Virus record (IMG/VR): IMGVR_UViG_2648501669_000009
Location: 1-6,663 of that record
Origin: a virus
Taxonomy: Duplodnaviria > Heunggongvirae > Uroviricota > Caudoviricetes
Strand: one strand, 5' to 3'
Length of the DNA stretch: 6,663 bases
The translations under genes were made by a program, and so were the position numbers. Under the pieces are notes generated by a model. The model was not told where the DNA came from, did no database searches, and was given only the letters and a program-made list of their open reading frames with translations. Positions 1 to 6,573 of the stretch are shown here, piece by piece (position 1 is the first letter of the stretch; the number at the start of each line of letters is the position of its first letter).

Positions 1-191
1 TTGTGCAGTGTGTTGAACGACGCCCATACCACGTCGTTATACAATTCAATAACTGGCTCAATTATTTTCCCGATTGCCCAGACAAAAATTAGAGGGGATA
101 TCGGTATCATTAACACGATAAACAGAATGAGAAACAGAAATTCTGTTGTTCTACTCTTTCGTGGATATTTTTTTCTGAATAATGTGACCAT
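1..191 (-). CDS. Partial CDS (first 63 codons, continues past window start): predicted small membrane protein
   Basis: Reverse-complementing 1-191 gives ATG at 191-189 and an open frame to position 1: MVTLFRKKYPRKSRTTEFLFLILFIVLMIPISPLIFVWAIGKIIEPVIELYNDVVWASFNTLH. It has a basic N-terminus followed by about 25 hydrophobic residues (one likely TM helix). It is absent from the ORF track because no stop lies in the window. AGGAGG (minus, 219-214) sits upstream, separated from the ATG by a GC hairpin. The start is uncertain (an ATG at 110 is also in frame). Confidence 0.4.
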   Translation of the reverse strand, partial: MVTLFRKKYPRKSRTTEFLFLILFIVLMIPISPLIFVWAIGKIIEPVIELYNDVVWASFNTLH

Positions 192-197
192 TCATTA

Positions 198-219
198 CCG
201 CCCTTTCGGGCGGCCTCCT
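198..219 (-). promoter_or_regulatory. Shine-Dalgarno AGGAGG plus a 6-bp GC stem with GAAA loop placed between the SD and the ATG at 191
   Basis: Plus strand 198-213 is ccgccctttcgggcgg (minus-strand RNA CCGCCC-GAAA-GGGCGG) and plus 214-219 is cctcct (minus AGGAGG). The linear SD-to-AUG distance is 22 nt, but about 6 nt if the hairpin folds. Confidence 0.35.
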
Positions 220-253
220 GATGTTTTGAGGGTGCAGGAATCCCTCCGGTTAA

Positions 254-280
254 GGATTTAATAAAAATCACTTCTGATTT
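254..280 (-). terminator. Weak hairpin with U-rich tail downstream of the 319-630 gene (possible partial terminator)
   Basis: Plus 265-280 is aaatca-cttc-tgattt, a perfect 6-bp inverted repeat with a 4-nt loop. On the minus strand it is followed by UUAUUAAAUCC. The stem is A/U-rich, so termination would be weak. Confidence 0.25.
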
Positions 281-318
281 AAATTTTCAGTGTTTTGTTG
301 CCAGGTGATTTATCGCCT

Positions 319-630
319 TTACGCTTCAGCCTTATTTCTCAGCCATACACAAACAGGACCATCTTCAGTGTCATGAATGGAACCAATGAACCAGCCATCG
401 CCCTCTGGTCGTTCCGGTTCCCATGCTGAAATATCAGGGCCATCTGCGTCCAGGTTAAAATCATCTTCATCCATAGTGCAGATAGTCCACTGAAGATTAT
501 TTGCCTCCATCCACGCGTTAAATTCCTCTGTGGAAATATATTCACGACCTGCGCAAAACTTTTCATACTCAGGATGTGTCCAGCAGCCATATTCATCACG
601 TACTACTGGTATTTCTTTAATTTCATTCAT
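319..630 (-). CDS. Hypothetical acidic protein, 103 aa (phage accessory; family not recognised)
   Basis: ORF MNEIKEIPVVRDEY...VWLRNKAEA. Its ATG at 630 overlaps the upstream stop in an ATGAATGA arrangement, with GGGAGA about 6 nt upstream. Very acidic and Trp-rich. Confidence 0.7.
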   Translation of the reverse strand: MNEIKEIPVVRDEYGCWTHPEYEKFCAGREYISTEEFNAWMEANNLQWTICTMDEDDFNLDADGPDISAWEPERPEGDGWFIGSIHDTEDGPVCVWLRNKAEA

Positions 631-877
631 TTCTGTTCTCCCACGTTTTCAGACTTTCACCACAGAACGGACAAAATGAAACCCGCACTGGTGATTTAGA
701 AAATTCACCGGAACGCAACATCACCAAATCAGGGCCGCGAGTTAAACTCTCATTCCAGATTTTGTATATCAGCAGACCTTTTCGCGTCGTGTATTCAGCA
801 TCATGCTCAAGGGATTTTGCCAGTGCCGTACACGGTTCTATCTTGTTGCCATTAATTTGGCATTTTGACTCACTCAC
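623..877 (-). CDS. Hypothetical Cys-containing small protein, 84 aa (putative zinc-binding)
   Basis: The track ORF 623-910 begins at a TTG inside the upstream gene. A GTG at 877-875 is preceded by AGGAGA plus a 6-nt spacer and overlaps the upstream TGA as GTGA, so it is the preferred start. The product (VSESKCQ...FCPFCGESLKTWENRNE) has Cys6, Cys16 and a C-terminal CPFC, a possible split zinc site. Confidence 0.6.
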   Translation of the reverse strand: MSESKCQINGNKIEPCTALAKSLEHDAEYTTRKGLLIYKIWNESLTRGPDLVMLRSGEFSKSPVRVSFCPFCGESLKTWENRNE

Positions 878-1341
878 TGGTTGTCTCCTTTGCGAATCTG
901 TTCCGCACAATGCAACAATGCTTCTGTCACTTCCTTAAGCGTTACAGTATCGGCATCATCCAGTTCTGCAACTTTTGCATGCCTGACAAACGCCGCGCGA
1001 AGCTCGTTAAACGCCACCGCCTGTATATCAGCCAGGAAAGCGTCAGTAGCTGGCGTTTCAGGCTTGAATCCATTTGCATCGCGTGGGCTGATGTCATCGC
1101 TTGTATAAATAAAGCAATCATCCTTAATGAATTTATTTAACCCCACATTCTCCACTGCCAGCGTCGCAAAATTAGCTTCCAGTTCTGCAATGCGTTTGCT
1201 TTGGGCTTCCCGTTCATCCAGCAGTTCCAACACAACCTGAGGTGTGACTTTCATGCGAAATGCCAGCAATTTTTGTGGTGTGGCTGCGATTTTTATTGCT
1301 TCTGCCACATCACGCAGTACCTGGTAATTAATGTTGCTCAC
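874..1341 (-). CDS. Coiled-coil protein, 155 aa, possibly Ead/Ea22-like
   Basis: The track ORF starts at ATG 1368 with no RBS. A GTG at 1341-1339 is preceded by AGGAGG (plus 1348-1353 cctcct) with a 6-nt spacer. The product (VSNINYQVLRDVAEAIK...ELEANFATLAVENVG...) has a predicted coiled-coil N-terminal half. The Ea22 resemblance is from memory only. Confidence 0.65.
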   Translation of the reverse strand: MSNINYQVLRDVAEAIKIAATPQKLLAFRMKVTPQVVLELLDEREAQSKRIAELEANFATLAVENVGLNKFIKDDCFIYTSDDISPRDANGFKPETPATDAFLADIQAVAFNELRAAFVRHAKVAELDDADTVTLKEVTEALLHCAEQIRKGDNQ

Positions 1342-1633
1342 TGGTTGCCTCCTGGAAAATAACTGCATGCCCCAGCTTCTCCGCCAGTGCCAGTTCCGCC
1401 TTAGCGCCTGCTGACCGCTGCCAGCCTTTCAGCATGTAAATCGCATCCACACAACGAATCATTGCCATGCAAATATCCATGTAGTGTGGCTGTGTCAGTC
1501 CGTCCGGAAGTACTGCCGGGTTTAAGACTGTATGCCCTTCCCGTTTCAGTTCCTCTTCCGCCTTGTGAAACGCCTCACGGTTGAAATTTTCATATCCCGT
1601 CATTGGACCGGCGATATAAACCCTCACCCTCAC
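1328..1633 (-). CDS. DUF4406-type protein (nucleoside 2-deoxyribosyltransferase-like fold), 101 aa
   Basis: The N-terminus MRVRVYIAGPMTGYENFN matches the YIAGPMTG signature I associate with the DUF4406 family. GTG start at 1633 with AGGAGG 8 nt upstream; it overlaps the upstream stop as GTGA. Confidence 0.8.
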   Translation of the reverse strand: MRVRVYIAGPMTGYENFNREAFHKAEEELKREGHTVLNPAVLPDGLTQPHYMDICMAMIRCVDAIYMLKGWQRSAGAKAELALAEKLGHAVIFQEATSEQH

Positions 1634-1947
1634 TCCTGTATCCTCCTGTCGAAATAAACATAGTTATTCACCGTGCGCAGCGGCATTTCGAGTTTTTCCG
1701 CTATCTCGCGACGAGAAATACCCTGCTCATGTAGCTTTCGTATCAGCTCAACACTGCTCCAGGGGATTTTTACCGACTGATGAAAATCACCTCGCAATAT
1801 CAGACTGATACCCAGTTCCCGCGCTTTTGTTCTTACTGCCACCTCCGTGCGACCAGTCAGTTTCCCGATATCTTTCACCCGCATGGTGCCAGCACACTGC
1901 CGGAGTATCAGAATTTCAGCCCTGCACCACTTCTTCCAGTTGCTCAC
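1630..1947 (-). CDS. Small DNA-binding protein with helix-turn-helix motifs, 105 aa (alternative start ATG 1884 gives 84 aa)
   Basis: The track ORF 1630-2034 overlaps the upstream gene by 80 nt. A GTG at 1947-1945 lies 5 nt after the upstream TAA and shares the GTGAGCAAC start context of the gene at 1341. HTH-like segments: GKLTGRTEVAVRTKARELGI and ISRREIAEKLEMPLRTVNNYV (NinH-like pattern). The start is not certain. Confidence 0.55.
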   Translation of the reverse strand: MSNWKKWCRAEILILRQCAGTMRVKDIGKLTGRTEVAVRTKARELGISLILRGDFHQSVKIPWSSVELIRKLHEQGISRREIAEKLEMPLRTVNNYVYFDRRIQE

Positions 1948-1952
1948 TGCTG

Positions 1953-2693
1953 TTACTCTCTGGTGGCAGTAATCTGTCGGAGAATATCCCGGTACTTGTT
2001 CAGCTCCCGCAGCGCGGCACAGACTCGCTCCCATTTCCGGATATCACTTTTCGCCCGACGCAGCTCGCGGTTTGCCTGTCGCAGCGATGGCAGAACCAGA
2101 TTATCCACTCGCTTCTCAAGCGGCTGCACAATGTCTGCCACAGTTTCTGTTTTAATATCTTCCTGTGTTGCAGCTTCCTGTACTGGTAACGCAACACATG
2201 CAGGCTGAGGAAAGGCTTTACCATCAGTTTCCGCTACCGATGCCGCTTTCGGCTCTGCTGGTAAATTACCGCCCGGCATGCAGTAGCGAAATTTACCGTT
2301 CTGGTTTACGCGTGCCAGCCGCCCCGTTGCGGTTACTACCGCCAGCGTGGAAGCAACCTTGCGAGTGCTGACACCGAACTTACCCGCCAGTTCCTCACAC
2401 GTTTTAGCTCCCTCCTGACCGATAAACTCAATCATCATGTCAGCGGTAACTTTTCGTTCGACCTCCCTGGTTAGCACATCCTGTACTTCAGATTGTGCTG
2501 GCTGCTCTTCGGCTACCCCTGATTCACCTTCGCCAGCCACACGCCAGGTGTATACGCTTTTATCAACGAAGCCAGCCTTTTTCAGTTCCCACAGCTCGTT
2601 CAGTACTTCTTCACGACTGATATCAAGTCGCGCAGCCAGCTCTACCGACGTGGCTTTTCCCATCGCTTTCAGTGCGTCAAAAACAGTCTCCAT
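1953..2693 (-). CDS. Tandem winged-helix-like protein with C-terminal coiled coil, 246 aa (phage early protein, function unknown)
   Basis: The track start (2744) overlaps the DnaC-like gene. The internal ATG at 2693-2691 has GGGAGG 8 nt upstream and sits 22 nt after the DnaC-like stop. Two similar segments ([30 protein letters not shown] and [34 protein letters not shown]) precede a basic, heptad-like C-terminus. Confidence 0.75.
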
Positions 2694-2715
2694 TAAAATT
2701 TCCTCCCGGTAAAAA

Positions 2716-3462
2716 TTACTTCTCAATACCTGGCTGACCAACATTCGGGCGCCAGCTCTCCCAGTTAAAATTCACCCATCGCCCGCCGTTCATGGTCATG
2801 CGATCCATAATCCGCTCGCCGAGCAATGTTTTCATGGCCTCATAGTTCAGGTTTGTCAGCATTCCCACGCTGCGCATCGACGCTGTCCGGCGATCAACAA
2901 TCTGGTGCAGTACCACCTGCTCGTTTTTCGTCTCGCGCTGAATGCCAATTTCATCAAGAACCAGCAGATCCACTTCGCACAGTTCCCGCAAAAATTTTTC
3001 GCCTGATTGCCCGTCGTCATAGCTGGCGTGTAGAGCACTCATAACATCAGCCACGGTAACCACAATCACTGTCTGGCCATCTTTCAGCAGGCGATTCCCG
3101 ATAGCCGCCGCTAAGTGGTTTTTCCCGGTACCAGGTTTTCCGCTGAATGCGAAATTTGTGCATCCGGTCATCAGTTCATCGGCGATGGATTTCACCTGGC
3201 TCAACGCGTATCGCTGGCCGTCATTCTGCACCTGGTAATTCGCAAACGAGCACTTGCGGTGCAACGGCTGGATGCCGGAGCGATTCAGAATTTTTTCCAC
3301 CCGCAACTGACGATTCTGGCGGTTGATCTCCTCGCAACGCTTCTGGCCTTCTGCAAGTTGCCACTCGCGCCACTCGTCCACTGTTCGGTATGGCGCGGTT
3401 ACATGCTGCGGAGCCAGCTTACGGATGCGTTCAAGAACACCGCCTGTCGCAATATTTTTCAT
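2716..3462 (-). CDS. DnaC-like AAA+ helicase loader (lambda P functional analogue; YdaV-type replication protein)
   Basis: Walker [16 protein letters not shown] and Walker B LLVLDEIG, 248 aa. The ATG at 3462 follows the O-like stop by 6 nt, with a GGGGG SD. Confidence 0.9.
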
Positions 3463-3468
3463 GCTTCG

Positions 3469-4416
3469 TTACCCCCTGAATCCCGGCGGAATTTCGGCGT
3501 CCGGCTCGGAAATATGATTCACGCAACGCTGTACAGGCGAACGCCCCAGACGAATAACCAGCTCATCCCATTTTTCGCGAAGCTTTGACGGGCTCATGAC
3601 GTTTTTTACCCAGAATGGATCCCGCTGTGCCCGACCAAACATTTCGCAAATTTGCCTGTGAGTTCTGCCATCAAGCATCCGCATTGTGCGCACGTCATTG
3701 GCCCATGCAGTCCAGTTGGGTTCTTTCGGTCGCATGATTTCGCCATCATCGCTGGCAGCCTGCTCGTAAAGACTCACGATTCGTCCCCAGATCCACTGCG
3801 CACACGCCAAATCTTCCTGGCTGCCCCACTGGCGTTTTTTCGCACTGAACACAACCGCGTCAGGGTGTCGGGTTAAAAAATCCTGTTCAGCCGTCTGCGG
3901 GTCCGGTTGCGAAGCGTCCGGACGAAAAGATCTTTTATCTGACGGATCAGGTTTTAATACTGACGGATCGGGGCCAACCATCGCCCCCCTAACCGGATGT
4001 TTTTTATCAACGGTTGATCCATCAAAATTTGAGGGGTCAACCGTTGAGGGGTCAATATTTGACGGGTCATTTTTTACCGGGTTAATTTTTCTTTTCGGTT
4101 TATATGCCTCACGCGCCGCCGCTGCTGCTGCTTCGAGTTTTTCCACATTAAGACGGTAGATATTGCTTTCATTACGCCCACCGACCTTACGTTCTTCCTT
4201 CGTCAGCCAGCCGTTCTTTTCCAGTTCTGCTATCGCAGCTTTAACCGTTGATTCACTCTTTGCCCCAATCTGACGACGAATGGTCTCCACTGCAGGCCAT
4301 GACACACCTTCGTCATTGCTGTAATCTGCAAGGCGAGCCATTACTGCCACCCTGGATAAGATCATGCCGGTGAAGGCGCACCCTTCCCAGACAAGACCAT
4401 GAAGCTTGCTGCTCAT
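3469..4416 (-). CDS. Phage replication initiation protein (lambda O-like: N-terminal winged-helix DNA-binding domain, repeat/poly-Ala linker, C-terminal domain)
   Basis: 315 aa. The N-terminal domain is HTH-like (VSWPAVETIRRQIGAKSESTVKAAIAELEKNGWL). The central region encodes EAAAAAARE and DPS repeats (DPSNIDPSTVDPSNFDGSTVD) that coincide with DNA iterons. It sits immediately upstream of the DnaC-like gene. GGAG SD 7 nt before ATG 4416. Confidence 0.85.
   Translation of the reverse strand: MSSKLHGLVWEGCAFTGMILSRVAVMARLADYSNDEGVSWPAVETIRRQIGAKSESTVKAAIAELEKNGWLTKEERKVGGRNESNIYRLNVEKLEAAAAAAREAYKPKRKINPVKNDPSNIDPSTVDPSNFDGSTVDKKHPVRGAMVGPDPSVLKPDPSDKRSFRPDASQPDPQTAEQDFLTRHPDAVVFSAKKRQWGSQEDLACAQWIWGRIVSLYEQAASDDGEIMRPKEPNWTAWANDVRTMRMLDGRTHRQICEMFGRAQRDPFWVKNVMSPSKLREKWDELVIRLGRSPVQRCVNHISEPDAEIPPGFRG
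3940..4074. repeat. Iteron-like direct repeats (core TGA[C/G]GG[A/G]TCA, at least 5 copies) inside the O-like gene, followed by an AT-rich tract: putative prophage replication origin
   Basis: Copies at 3940-3949 tgacggatca, 3961-3970 tgacggatcg, 4030-4039 tgaggggtca, 4045-4054 tgaggggtca and 4060-4069 tgacgggtca, the last three as tandem 15-bp units. Inverted repeats tcaacggttga (4008-4018) and tcaaccgttga (4037-4047). AT-rich tract about 4069-4105. Confidence 0.6.
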
Positions 4417-4440: not shown

Positions 4441-4866
4441 TTAGTGCATCACCAAGGCATTTCCCGCCGGACCACCACGATTCATCTGATTGAAACCAGC
4501 GATCGCCACTGCGACAAAATCATCAGCGTCTCTCACCAGTCGTTCCCGCGTCTCCACCAGCTCCCGAAACCAGGCTGAACTGTGGCTGCGCATTCGGGCC
4601 ACCAGCAGAGGAGGCATTGCTTTTTCGATCGCTGGTAACAACGCCTGAATTTTTTTAACCGCATCAGGGGTGTCTTTCTCCACCCAGCGGAAAATTTTCT
4701 GAGTATTGCGAGCCAGGGCTTCCGGATGGCTGTCGTCATATAATTCCGGGAACGTCATACCCAGCTCAAAATAAGCCCGGGTTATTTCAGCTGCCGGAAC
4801 TTTTTCACCGTCCGGATGCGCCCAGGCATTCATCGCCATGCGGATGTGTTCATGCTTGATTTTCAT
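4441..4866 (-). CDS. ydaT: YdaT-family protein (CII-like regulator of Rac/CP-933P-type prophages), 141 aa
   Basis: N-terminus MKIKHEHI. Its ATG overlaps the ydaS-like stop as ATGA (4866-4863). Second gene of the rightward-early-type operon, directly before the O-like gene. Confidence 0.8.
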   Translation of the reverse strand: MKIKHEHIRMAMNAWAHPDGEKVPAAEITRAYFELGMTFPELYDDSHPEALARNTQKIFRWVEKDTPDAVKKIQALLPAIEKAMPPLLVARMRSHSSAWFRELVETRERLVRDADDFVAVAIAGFNQMNRGGPAGNALVMH

Positions 4867-5165
4867 GAATCAACTCCATCAGATAAGCATGCACTACAAT
4901 CACCTTCAGCATGAACTACATGTGTTTGCCCCAAACGAATGCCGCTCGCATACTCAGGCCAAATAAGCTCCCAATCATGGGGTCGTAGCTCCGCCCTACT
5001 TACTTGGCCTTCCGTCGCAGATTCGATCATAAGGGCGCGGGTTGGAGATATAGCTGCTCGTCCAGACGCCATTTGCGATAAGTAAGATGGCGATACACCA
5101 AGTCTGGCCGCGAATTTCTTAGCATCACCAACCCTCAATGATTTAATAAACTCTTTTAATGTCAT
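4863..5165 (-). CDS. ydaS: YdaS-family Cro-like HTH regulator, 100 aa
   Basis: HTH DAKKFAARLGVSPSYLSQMASGRAAISPTRALMIESAT. First gene transcribed divergently from the repressor gene. GAGGAAGG SD before ATG 5165. Confidence 0.8.
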   Translation of the reverse strand: MTLKEFIKSLRVGDAKKFAARLGVSPSYLSQMASGRAAISPTRALMIESATEGQVSRAELRPHDWELIWPEYASGIRLGQTHVVHAEGDCSACLSDGVDS

Positions 5166-5175
5166 ACCTTCCTCG

Positions 5176-5251
5176 GTTTAGTGTTTTTTTGTGAGTTTAG
5201 TGTTTAATAAACCATTAAGTCAAGTATTTGCTTGTTTAGTGATTACTAAAG
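5176..5251. promoter_or_regulatory. OR-like operator cluster: three 18-bp sites each starting GTTTAGTG
   Basis: Sites at 5176-5193 gtttagtgtttttttgtg, 5195-5212 gtttagtgtttaataaac (GTTTA-N8-TAAAC dyad) and 5234-5251 gtttagtgattactaaag, all in the 97-bp interval between the divergent ydaS-like and repressor genes. Confidence 0.5.
5194..5223 (-). promoter_or_regulatory. PR-like sigma70 promoter for the ydaS-ydaT-O-DnaC operon
   Basis: Minus-strand -35 TTGACT (plus 5218-5223), 18-nt spacer, -10 TAAACT (plus 5194-5199). The operator at 5195-5212 covers the spacer and -10. Confidence 0.4.
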
Positions 5252-5256
5252 ATAAT
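5228..5256 (+). promoter_or_regulatory. PRM-like promoter for the repressor operon; predicted leaderless mRNA
   Basis: -35 TTGCTT (5228-5233), 17-nt spacer, -10 GATAAT (5251-5256). The ATG at 5263 lies 6 nt after the -10 with no SD, so the transcript would start at or next to the start codon. Confidence 0.45.
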
Positions 5257-5262
5257 TACCGC

Positions 5263-5634
5263 ATGCAAAAAAAAGAAATTCGCCGTTTACGTCTCAAGGA
5301 GTGGTTTAAAGATAAAACTCTGCCACCCAAAGAGAAGAGCTACCTATCTCAACTAATGAGTGGGAGGGCCTCGTTTGGAGAAAAGGCTGCCAGAAGAATA
5401 GAGCAAACATACGGGATGCCGGAAGGGTATCTGGATGCGGAATACGCAGAACAACCGGAAGTTTCTCCACCACATGCAGGGTTAACGTCTAATCAACTGG
5501 AATTATTGCAGATTTTTTCAGCCTTCCCTGAGGATGAGCAACGCCAGATAATCAGCGAGTTAAAGCAGAAAAAAGAATCAATGGAAGATCTCATAGCGAG
5601 ATGGATTGCGGCGCAAAAATGCCGCCGCGCCTGA
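5263..5634 (+). CDS. paaR2: XRE-family HTH repressor (CI-like prophage repressor; PaaR2-type regulator of a three-gene TA operon), 123 aa
   Basis: The track ORF begins at GTG 5191, only 25 nt from the divergent gene. The ATG at 5263 leaves room for both promoters. HTH KSYLSQLMSGRASFGEKAARRIEQTYGMPEGYLD. Divergent from the Cro-like gene and followed by an antitoxin-toxin pair. Confidence 0.7.
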   Translation: MQKKEIRRLRLKEWFKDKTLPPKEKSYLSQLMSGRASFGEKAARRIEQTYGMPEGYLDAEYAEQPEVSPPHAGLTSNQLELLQIFSAFPEDEQRQIISELKQKKESMEDLIARWIAAQKCRRA

Positions 5635-5654: not shown

Positions 5655-5846
5655 ATGAATAGAGCCCTTTCACCAATGGTTTCTGAATTTGAAACCATTG
5701 AACAAGAAAACAGTTACAACGAATGGCTGCGTGCGAAAGTAGCAACGAGCCTTGCAGATCCGCGCCCAGCAATTCCCCATGACGAAGTTGAGCGCAGAAT
5801 GGCAGAACGCTTTGCTAAAATGCGCAAGGAACGGAGCAAGCAGTAA
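5655..5846 (+). CDS. paaA2: PaaA2-type antitoxin, 63 aa
   Basis: The track ORF starts at ATG 5601 inside the repressor gene. The ATG at 5655 is preceded by GGAGGA (5645-5650). The 63-aa product (MNRALSPMVSEFETIEQENSYNEWLRAKVATSLADPRPAIPHDEVERRMAERFAKMRKERSKQ) matches the length and character I recall for PaaA2. Confidence 0.8.
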   Translation: MNRALSPMVSEFETIEQENSYNEWLRAKVATSLADPRPAIPHDEVERRMAERFAKMRKERSKQ

Positions 5847-5847
5847 A

Positions 5848-6126
5848 ATGTTACCCGTGTTATGGCTTGAAAGCGCAGATACCGACCTAGATGATATAGC
5901 TAGCTATATTGCTCGTTTCGACATAGATGCGGCTGAACGCTTATGGCAGCGATTAAGGGGTTGTGTGCTGCCGTTATCCGAACATCCGTATTTATACCCA
6001 CCAAGCGACAGAGTACCTGGCTTGCGTGAGATTGTAGCCCACCCTAACTATATAATTCTATACCGCGTAACAACATCAAGCGTTGAAGTAGTAAACGTGA
6101 TCCACGCAAGACGCCAGTTTCCCTAA
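5848..6126 (+). CDS. parE2: ParE-family toxin (ParE2-type), 92 aa
   Basis: ATG 5848 lies 1 nt after the antitoxin TAA (TAAaATG). The product MLPVLWLESADTDLDDIASYIARFDIDAAERLWQRL...ILYRVTTSSVEVVNVIHARRQFP has a ParE/RelE-like layout. The longer track ORF from 5752 is an in-frame upstream extension overlapping the antitoxin. Confidence 0.85.
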   Translation: MLPVLWLESADTDLDDIASYIARFDIDAAERLWQRLRGCVLPLSEHPYLYPPSDRVPGLREIVAHPNYIILYRVTTSSVEVVNVIHARRQFP

Positions 6127-6197: not shown

Positions 6198-6238
6198 GTT
6201 TAGTTTTTACTTGACTTAAGTTTAATGTTTATTAAACT
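6198..6238 (+). promoter_or_regulatory. OL-like operator copies plus PL-like promoter for the early-left genes
   Basis: 6220-6237 gtttaatgtttattaaac matches the OR site 5195-5212 at 16 of 18 positions. 6198-6215 gtttagtttttacttgac shares only the left half. -35 TTGACT (6211-6216), 16-nt spacer, -10 TAAACT (6233-6238), the same hexamers as the PR-like promoter. Confidence 0.45.
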
Positions 6239-6417
6239 AAAAATACCAACCCACCCCGCCCCACAGAATGCAGGGCAATACTTCGAGTTACCAGGCAGTG
6301 GTCAGGGGTTAAGTAGCCAGCCCGAGGCGTAAGAACATGACGGCAGGGTTCAACTTTAATAACTATGCAGCAGGTTTTTGTTCCGCTACCCCGGCGTTAA
6401 GGGGAAATGAGGTCAGC

Positions 6418-6573
6418 ATGGATACTATCGATCTTGGCAACAACGAATCTCTGGTGTACGGCGTGTTTCTCAACCAGGACGGTACGTTCACCGCGATGAC
6501 GTATACCAAAAGCAAAACGTTTAAAACCGAATCTGGCGCGCGTCGCTGGCTGGAAAGAAATTCAGGTGAGTGA
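6418..6573 (+). CDS. Small early-left protein, 51 aa (I believe it resembles Rac YdaF, unverified)
   Basis: ATG 6418 with GAGG 5 nt upstream. Product MDTIDLGNNESLVYGVFLNQDGTFTAMTYTKSKTFKTESGARRWLERNSGE. The track start at 6337 has no SD and would give 78 aa. Confidence 0.6.
   Translation: MDTIDLGNNESLVYGVFLNQDGTFTAMTYTKSKTFKTESGARRWLERNSGE

Follow-up and report, generated by a model that had tools for sequence, protein, structure and literature searches.

The closest described system is the cryptic prophage CP-933P of E. coli O157:H7 EDL933, in which a 97-bp intergenic region carries the promoters PR933P and PRM933P (Jurenas et al. 2021, mBio, PMC8630535). The PRM933P start obtained by 5' RACE was the paaR2 translation start, 5' RACE was 'in line with' the predicted PR933P, and PaaR2-His was expressed from a leaderless construct (PMC8630535). 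Edman sequencing gave the PaaR2 N-terminus as MQKKE, and the intact mass of 15,081 Da agreed with the short form of the protein (PMC8630535). Several complexes were seen in EMSA, and the DNase I footprints over both promoters were about 78 bp and continuous for PaaR2 and about 65 bp in two blocks for YdaS (PMC8630535). Four equally spaced 18-bp inverted repeats with the half-site consensus GTTTAGTAA were described, with IR1 on PRM, IR3 on PR, and one degenerate half in each of IR2 and IR4; IR4 falls inside the PaaR2 footprint, and three 'pseudosymmetrical operators', OR1-OR3, overlap IR1, IR3 and IR4 (PMC8630535). The authors stated that the precise binding sequences were still to be determined, direct and inverted repeats both being possible (PMC8630535). 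No later literature settling direct versus inverted repeat recognition by PaaR2 or YdaS was found, and operator mutagenesis of the CP-933P region is not reported in the literature.

Using gfp reporters, PaaR2 and YdaS were each found to repress both promoters, PaaR2 acting more strongly on PR and YdaS on PRM (PMC8630535). Low PaaR2 activates the weak PRM933P about 4-fold (PMC8630535). A further promoter, PL933P, lies with OL1-3 near the toxin-antitoxin operon, has the same hexamers as PR933P, and is repressed by both PaaR2 and YdaS (PMC8630535). YdaT activates PRE933P (PMC8630535), and its box was footprinted in CP-933P (PMC9986795). The CP-933P locus is bistable, PaaR2 forms octamers in solution, and there was no mitomycin C response (PMC8630535).

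Like lambda, CP-933P has a weak PRM that low repressor stimulates, an OL/PL at a remote position, and an octamer-forming repressor. It differs in having four 18-bp sites of the GTTTA-N8-TAAAC type about 19-20 bp apart where lambda has three 17-bp sites, and a toxin-antitoxin pair in the place of rexAB. The Rac prophage of E. coli K-12 has the order racR-ydaS-ydaT; four RacR operators are reported for its intergenic region, and at its ydaT start lies an almost identical YdaT box. It differs in having several racR promoters and in that YdaT also binds the intergenic region, unlike in CP-933P (PMC11879457). Identity to the Rac counterparts is 26% for the CP-933P YdaS and 31% for YdaT (PMC8630535).

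The window, that is, the whole 6,663-base stretch of DNA analysed here, carries the paaR2-paaA2-parE2/ydaS-ydaT immunity region of a CP-933P-type cryptic lambdoid prophage (Table 1). Its genes and their order are those of CP-933P/Sp12 of E. coli O157:H7, to which the locus is 99% identical and with which it has the PR, PRM and PL hexamers, the repeats, and the YdaT box in common; the published promoters were compared through the text statements of PMC8630535. Gene order and logic are also the same as in Rac. An interval of 97 bp, 5166-5262, separates the ydaS start (complement of 5163-5165) from the ATG at 5263, and 96 of its 97 positions are identical in E. coli O157:H7 strain Balcarce_24.2. 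The sole difference, which also separates the window from CP-933P/Sp12, is a G and not an A at 5261, two bases 5' of the ATG. Over 901 bases around the interval, many E. coli chromosomes, O157:H7 included, share 99.0-99.6% identity with the window. The operator region was found at at least 97.7% identity in 593 of 5,426 complete E. coli genomes and in identical form in none; the G at 5261 was absent from all 593. For the whole window, the best match among the complete E. coli genomes had 83% coverage and 87% identity, and the replication-gene side is, as judged from sequence, mosaic relative to the compared genomes, which is a further difference from CP-933P/Sp12. An Rfam scan of the whole window gave no family above threshold.

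Table 1 Features of the window, with published names where these apply
Feature	Coordinates	Strand	Description
DnaC/IstB-like ATPase gene	2716-3462	-	
O-like replication gene	3469-4416	-	
ydaT	4441-4866	-	CII analogue, 141 aa; Pfam PF06254 YdaT_toxin, E = 1.4e-9
YdaT OM box	4856-4873		TTGATTTTCATGAATCAA; exact TTGATT-N6-AATCAA match; spans ydaS stop and ydaT start
ydaS	4863-5165	-	Cro analogue, 100 aa; Pfam PF15943 YdaS, E = 3.9e-12, and HTH_3
ydaS Shine-Dalgarno (SD)	5167-5174	-	GAGGAAGG on - strand; read from sequence
Site 1, published IR4	5176-5193		GTTTAGTGTTTTTTTGTG; left half-site alone conserved; over predicted PR start region
PR933P, for ydaS-ydaT	5194-5223	-	-35 TTGACT (5223-5218), 18-nt spacer, -10 TAAACT (5199-5194)
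Site 2, published IR3	5195-5212		GTTTAGTGTTTAATAAAC; perfect GTTTA-N8-TAAAC dyad, 0 mismatches; over PR spacer and -10
Published IR2 (weak)	5215-5232		ATTAAGTCAAGTATTTGC; mostly two back-to-back -35 hexamers
PRM933P, for paaR2-paaA2-parE2	5228-5256	+	-35 TTGCTT (5228-5233), 17-nt spacer, -10 GATAAT (5251-5256)
Site 3, published IR1	5234-5251		GTTTAGTGATTACTAAAG; dyad with 1 mismatch; fills PRM spacer
paaR2	5263-5634	+	CI analogue, 123 aa; RefSeq/phage Evi CDS start, homologue N-termini, published 5' RACE
paaA2	5655-5846	+	Antitoxin, 63 aa; Pfam PF21217 PaaA2, E = 1e-19
parE2	5848-6126	+	Toxin, 92 aa; Pfam PF05016 ParE_toxin, E = 6.7e-17
OL/PL933P analogue	6198-6240	+	Dyads 6198-6215 and 6220-6237; TTGACT (6211-6216), TAAACT (6233-6238)
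DUF1391 gene	6337-6573	+	

The regulator is PaaR2 itself, its residues 1-65 being identical to PDB entries 7NKV and 8C3K; entry 8C3L covers residues 1-57, and all three are titled 'Phage repressor protein CI' and were made from constructs that begin MQKKE. With paaA2 and parE2 directly 3' of the regulator gene, the window has the three-gene paaR2-paaA2-parE2 operon. Pfam gave no family for the 123-aa PaaR2, neither an HTH match nor the S24 autocleavage domain (PF00717), and the family placement was therefore made from the homologue search and the PDB; a PDB sequence search with PaaR2 returned only PaaR2 itself at E < 0.1, and the HTH was reported by the authors only through HHpred (PMC8630535). 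Since PaaR2 has no S24 autocleavage domain, the switch is not SOS-inducible. The ydaT product is labelled 'toxin YdaT family protein' in RefSeq. No sequence relationship between lambda CI or Cro and the window proteins was detectable by Pfam or PDB search.

Three 18-bp sites with a common start had been reported in the interval by the first-pass annotation, and this was reproduced: the window has exactly three copies of GTTTAGTG, at 5176, 5195 and 5234, always on the + strand and always inside the 97-bp interval, with a chance expectation of 0.18 and three copies reached in 0 of 200 shuffles. The repeat finder returned these copies as an 11-nt direct-repeat family and also paired 5188-5211 with 5227-5250 (24 nt). 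The description of 5195-5212 as the best dyad, lying over the spacer and -10 of PR, was likewise accurate, with no mismatch in the dyad and a TTGACT-18-TAAACT match in the promoter scan. The operator had been called tripartite; its three sites are IR4, IR3 and IR1, but the weak fourth repeat, IR2, was missed. IR2 was placed at about 5215-5232 from the equal spacing stated in PMC8630535, and its halves match the half-site consensus at 6/9 and 2/9 positions (2/9 for the right half), while the right half of IR4 matches at 3/9. The pattern GTTTAGTN6TAAAC with at most one mismatch was found in the window only at 5195, 5234 and 6220, the last being in the OL/PL933P analogue, whose hexamers are identical to those of PR. 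As expected for an OR of the lambda type, several dyads (5195, 5234, 6198 and 6220) overlap promoter hexamers, both promoters of the interval are covered, and a remote OL is present.

Within the interval, PR933P was the only sigma-70-like match of the promoter scan, at 9/12 positions, and its GTCAAG is kept in 24 loci. The -35 of PRM933P has 3/6 consensus positions and was therefore not listed by the scan; the promoter was placed by hand and by conservation, TTGCTT-N17-(C/G/T)A(A/C/T)AAT being conserved in about 30 loci. As far as its sequence goes, such a -35 fits a weak, activator-dependent promoter. The -35 hexamers of the two promoters are 4 bp apart. The divergent promoters of the first-pass annotation are therefore upheld, PR by the scan, PRM by reading and conservation, and both by the published 5' RACE (PMC8630535). 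As in lambda OR, a repressor gene and a cro-like gene diverge from one short interval with back-to-back promoters under shared multipartite dyad operators. On the ydaS side, GAGGAAGG ends one base from the ATG with its GAGG core 5 nt before the ATG, and the PR +1 is predicted near 5187, which would give a 22-nt leader carrying the ydaS SD.

On the paaR2 side, the six bases TACCGC lie between GATAAT and the ATG at 5263, the distance that had been noted earlier, and the ATG lacks an SD, as had also been noted: GGAG, GAGG and AGGA are all absent from the 20 nt before it. The gene thus has an AUG start with no SD at a functional distance, as a leaderless mRNA does. Transcription is predicted to start on the A of this ATG, seven bases past the final T of GATAAT, and this is the start found by 5' RACE on the O157:H7 sequence. 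Since PRM933P starts on this A, the paaR2 mRNA would have neither a 5' leader nor an SD, in the same manner as lambda cI mRNA from PRM, which begins at the AUG; the parallel drawn earlier with lambda cI thus agrees with 5' RACE on a 96/97-identical sequence (PMC8630535). We infer that the G at 5261 leaves the transcription start unmoved. The window variant may start at -2, in which case an mRNA with so short a leader (2 nt) would still act like a leaderless one. In an mRNA that begins at 5263, the first 35 nt are predicted to be unpaired (MFE -3.4 vs -6.7 kcal/mol for shuffles, z = +1.49).

The interval 5166-5262 is almost certainly the OR-type control region of a CP-933P-type prophage, with promoters and operators in common and a leaderless paaR2 mRNA. 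Start sites, N-terminus, footprints, and reporter regulation come from the published experiments on the 96/97-identical sequence, and this analysis contributes the sequence anatomy, the match to the published locus, and the conservation of the geometry across the family. Binding of the repressor to the region, which had been expected from the sites, is documented by the published EMSA and PaaR2 footprint on the O157:H7 sequence (PMC8630535). The observation made earlier is confirmed and its interpretation supported; operators, promoters and leaderless mRNA have already been known since 2021 for a nearly identical sequence, and nothing in them is new for the locus.

In operation, PR933P on the - strand would drive ydaS (Cro analogue) and ydaT (CII analogue), and the weak PRM933P on the + strand would drive paaR2 (CI analogue), paaA2 and parE2, with 18-bp repeats built from the half-site GTTTAGT(A/G)(A/T) overlapping both. 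We infer the assignment of individual repeats to PaaR2 or YdaS. From the anatomy, IR3 (centre about 5203.5) would block the PR -10, IR4 would cover the PR start region, and IR1 (centre about 5242.5, roughly -20 relative to PRM) would block PRM. The same stretch would be bound by PaaR2 and YdaS with opposite preference: PaaR2 would shut PR first and raise PRM at low level, YdaS would shut PRM first, and a bistable switch would result. Given -35 hexamers separated by 4 bp, low PaaR2 could activate PRM either through direct contact or by relieving competition from PR. The site centres, about 19-20 bp apart, would place adjacent dimers nearly on one face of the helix, a spacing compatible with cooperative binding by octameric PaaR2.

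For comparison across the family, one genome per species was scanned, and 61 loci encoding PaaR2 relatives were found in Gamma- and Betaproteobacteria, the start ATG being placeable in 59; L014 and the weak loci L062 and L063 were not counted, as no in-frame start codon could be assigned to them. A -10-like hexamer was defined as A at position 2, T at position 6, and at least 3/6 matches, and was counted position by position. Such a hexamer lies exactly 6 nt 5' of the ATG in 34 of the 59 loci (background 4.9% per position, about 3 expected), a count that overstates the number of independent events since the loci are related phylogenetically. Widening the distance to 5-7 nt gives 38/59 loci, and in none of these 38 does an SD core lie 4-10 nt before the ATG; GGAGG abuts the ATG in a few of them, too close to function. 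The 38 loci include enterobacterial, Yersinia, Proteus, Erwinia, Burkholderia/Paraburkholderia/Caballeronia, Pandoraea, Massilia, and Nitrosomonas members, and their repressors are of both kinds, short PaaR2-like and S24-bearing. Eight Pasteurellaceae/Orbaceae loci (L033, L037, L041, L047, L050, L053, L057 and L058) retain the TTGCTT - operator - TAAAAT promoter and have a leader of 19-28 nt, with GGAG or GAGG at 4-7 nt from the ATG in every case. The SD is thus present exactly where there is a leader and missing where the -10 abuts the ATG, a comparison that lends independent support to reading the mRNA as leaderless. An 11-nt perfect inverted repeat (5110-5120/5273-5283), seemingly non-random (4 of 2,000 shuffles), was also seen around the interval. 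It is absent from 23 diverged loci and is probably coincidental or lineage-specific.

The repressor could in principle be a 147-aa product initiated at GTG 5191 on a leadered mRNA from further upstream, with the GTTTAGTG repeats partly coding, and this is extremely improbable. GTG 5191 is the start in the mechanical longest-ORF listing (5191-5634), some metagenome gene calls carry the N-terminal extension (P0001, 150 aa; P0002, 144 aa), and the YdaT-dependent PRE933P transcript reads through the 5191-5262 stretch (PMC8630535). For PRM transcripts, however, the long form is refuted by the MQKKE N-terminus and the short-form mass (PMC8630535). The ATG at 5263 is the CDS start in all three annotated records inspected, namely, two in RefSeq (WP_001169686.1 and WP_122985828.1, 123 aa) and phage Evi, and strain TUM1880 has GCG in place of the GTG (5191-5193) with the 123-aa ORF intact. 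No SD precedes 5191, the sequence there being the complement of the ydaS SD. In 22 homologues, S24-peptidase forms included, the first Met aligns with 5263, and the extension is absent from all homologues below 90% identity in the alignment. The Met-5263 start is found in every aligned homologue below about 90% identity (Photorhabdus, Xenorhabdus, Providencia, Serratia, Salmonella, Cedecea, Mixta and Pantoea), in all diverged homologues at 40-50% identity, and in every aligned S24-peptidase homologue of roughly 210 aa. The suspicion that GTG 5191 was wrongly called as the start is thus well founded. As the PRE933P transcript carries the paaR2 AUG internally and without an SD, the 'CII-like' route may not make PaaR2 efficiently.

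With three exact direct copies of GTTTAGTG(T/A)TT, one conserved half each in IR4 and IR2, and both possibilities left standing in PMC8630535, the functional units might be tandem direct repeats ('OR1-OR3') read head-to-tail by a PaaR2 oligomer and not dimer-bound dyads, but this is unlikely in view of the diverged loci. The in-register consensus of 24 loci is aagTTtattaaacactAAaC..aa.GTCAAGtaTTTGCTTGTTTAG..aTTACTAATCAaAAT-N6-ATG, in which two dyads only are conserved, at the IR3 and IR1 positions, with GTCAAGTATTTGCTT between them; this middle part holds the back-to-back -35 hexamers (GTCAAG, the complement of TTGAC, then TTGCTT). Both halves of the two dyads (GTTTA...ACTAAAC) are kept, that of IR3 at the same position and that of IR1 as GTTTAG-N4-TACTAAT, whereas the 'GTG' needed for GTTTAGTG to form a direct repeat is not. 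The IR3 18-mer of the window is moreover the exact reverse complement of the same-position 18-mer in the Yersinia, Erwinia and Proteus loci, a change that is neutral only for a symmetric site. Taken as sequence evidence, the conserved dyads, the unconserved 'GTG' and the reverse-complemented IR3 favour dyad recognition over the head-to-tail reading, and this comparative result bears on a question unsettled in PMC8630535. The same consensus suggests that the ancestral operator was bipartite, and there is about an even chance that the operator is essentially so today, with IR3 and IR1 ancestral and IR4 and IR2 lineage-specific or auxiliary half-sites. IR4 is absent from the 24 diverged loci and its region is unconserved, and site 1 is thus specific to the CP-933P lineage; IR2 is conserved mainly as two -35 hexamers, and the right halves of both are poor matches to the half-site. 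Against this, the PaaR2 footprint in CP-933P is continuous and several EMSA complexes were seen (PMC8630535), which points to occupation of more than two sites in that lineage.

By a slight margin we favour the view that this is an old design, in which a PaaR2-type DNA-binding domain goes together with two dyads, a -10 placed 6 nt from the ATG and an obligately leaderless repressor mRNA. The domain may be common to short PaaR2-like and SOS-cleavable S24 repressors in Gamma- and Betaproteobacteria, Pasteurellaceae and Orbaceae may have converted to a leadered, SD-dependent form, and the CP-933P lineage may have added the half-sites IR4 and IR2. No family-level description of such a design was found in the literature. 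The comparative geometry and the split between leaderless and leadered loci are modest additions, and no comparative analysis of this kind was found in the papers on the locus. A reading of the sequence alone recovered a real genetic switch, with its leaderless repressor mRNA and a long ORF that had been mis-called, and the conserved 6-nt distance together with the dyads could help to correct start-codon calls in this repressor family. The S24-peptidase repressors of Serratia, Yersinia, Erwinia and Proteus, presumably SOS-cleavable from their PF00717 domain, have N-terminal parts of roughly 58 residues that are 57-85% identical to PaaR2, and their loci have the same two dyads, promoter hexamers, and 6-nt -10-to-ATG distance as the window, without an IR4-like third GTTTAGTG site. 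These proteins are about 210 aa long with PF00717 at the C-terminus, whereas PaaR2 has a short, unrelated C-terminal part; PaaR2 thus looks like the same DNA-binding domain joined to a different and shorter C-terminal part.

The paaR2 repressor gene, the CI analogue of this prophage, has no SD within 20 nt before its AUG (window 5243-5262), and on the transcript from the YdaT-activated promoter PRE933P, the activity of which was reported from a transcriptional fusion only (PMC8630535), this AUG would be internal and would likewise lack an SD in those 20 nt. The window carries G at 5261, position -2 of the leaderless paaR2 start predicted for this variant, while the aligned O157:H7 record has A. 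None of the 593 complete E. coli genomes carrying the operator region (at least 97.7% identity) was identical to the window over 5150-5280.

In related loci of Pasteurellaceae and Orbaceae (L033, L037, L041, L047, L050, L053, L057, and L058), a leader of 19-28 nt with a canonical SD is found upstream of the PaaR2 relatives, and the promoter and operator are unchanged; by sequence, these loci appear to be the leadered form within an otherwise leaderless family. For the Photorhabdus and Xenorhabdus loci (L003-L011, L017, and L018), where a TACTAATCACAAT element is located about 50 nt 5' of the ATG, no SD is evident before the ATG, and TATAAA is found 4 nt before it, the mRNAs may either be leadered without an SD or come from a second promoter.

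Further sites around the immunity region are listed in the table. The hexamers of the PL933P analogue, TTGACT and TAAACT, are the same as those of PR and are separated by 16 nt, compared with 18 nt in PR. The TTGATT-N6-AATCAA motif is the YdaT site footprinted in CP-933P (PMC9986795). The arms of the inverted repeat are approximately symmetric around the operator region, and a length of 11 nt was reached in only 4 of 2,000 shuffles. The repeat was not found in the 23 diverged loci examined and is therefore probably coincidental or lineage-specific.

Features of the window outside the operator region
Feature	Window position	Location	Sequence detail
OL/PL933P analogue	6198-6240	downstream of parE2	dyads 6198-6215 and 6220-6237
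YdaT operator OM	4856-4873	across ydaS stop and ydaT start	TTGATTTTCATGAATCAA; exact match to TTGATT-N6-AATCAA
Perfect 11-nt inverted repeat	5110-5120 and 5273-5283	within ydaS and paaR2 coding starts	GCGAATTTCTT / AAGAAATTCGC

PaaR2 residues 1-58 (window 5263-5436) share 57-85% identity with the N-termini of S24-peptidase (LexA/CI-type) repressors of about 210 aa from Serratia, Yersinia, Erwinia, and others (proteins P0060-P0118). PaaR2 thus looks like the DNA-binding domain of an S24 repressor in which the cleavable C-terminal domain was swapped for another part. The replication-gene side (window 1-4416) is mosaic when set against the E. coli prophages used for comparison. Over the whole window, no match was better than 87% identity at 83% coverage, whereas the immunity region is 99% identical, a pattern typical of lambdoid module exchange.
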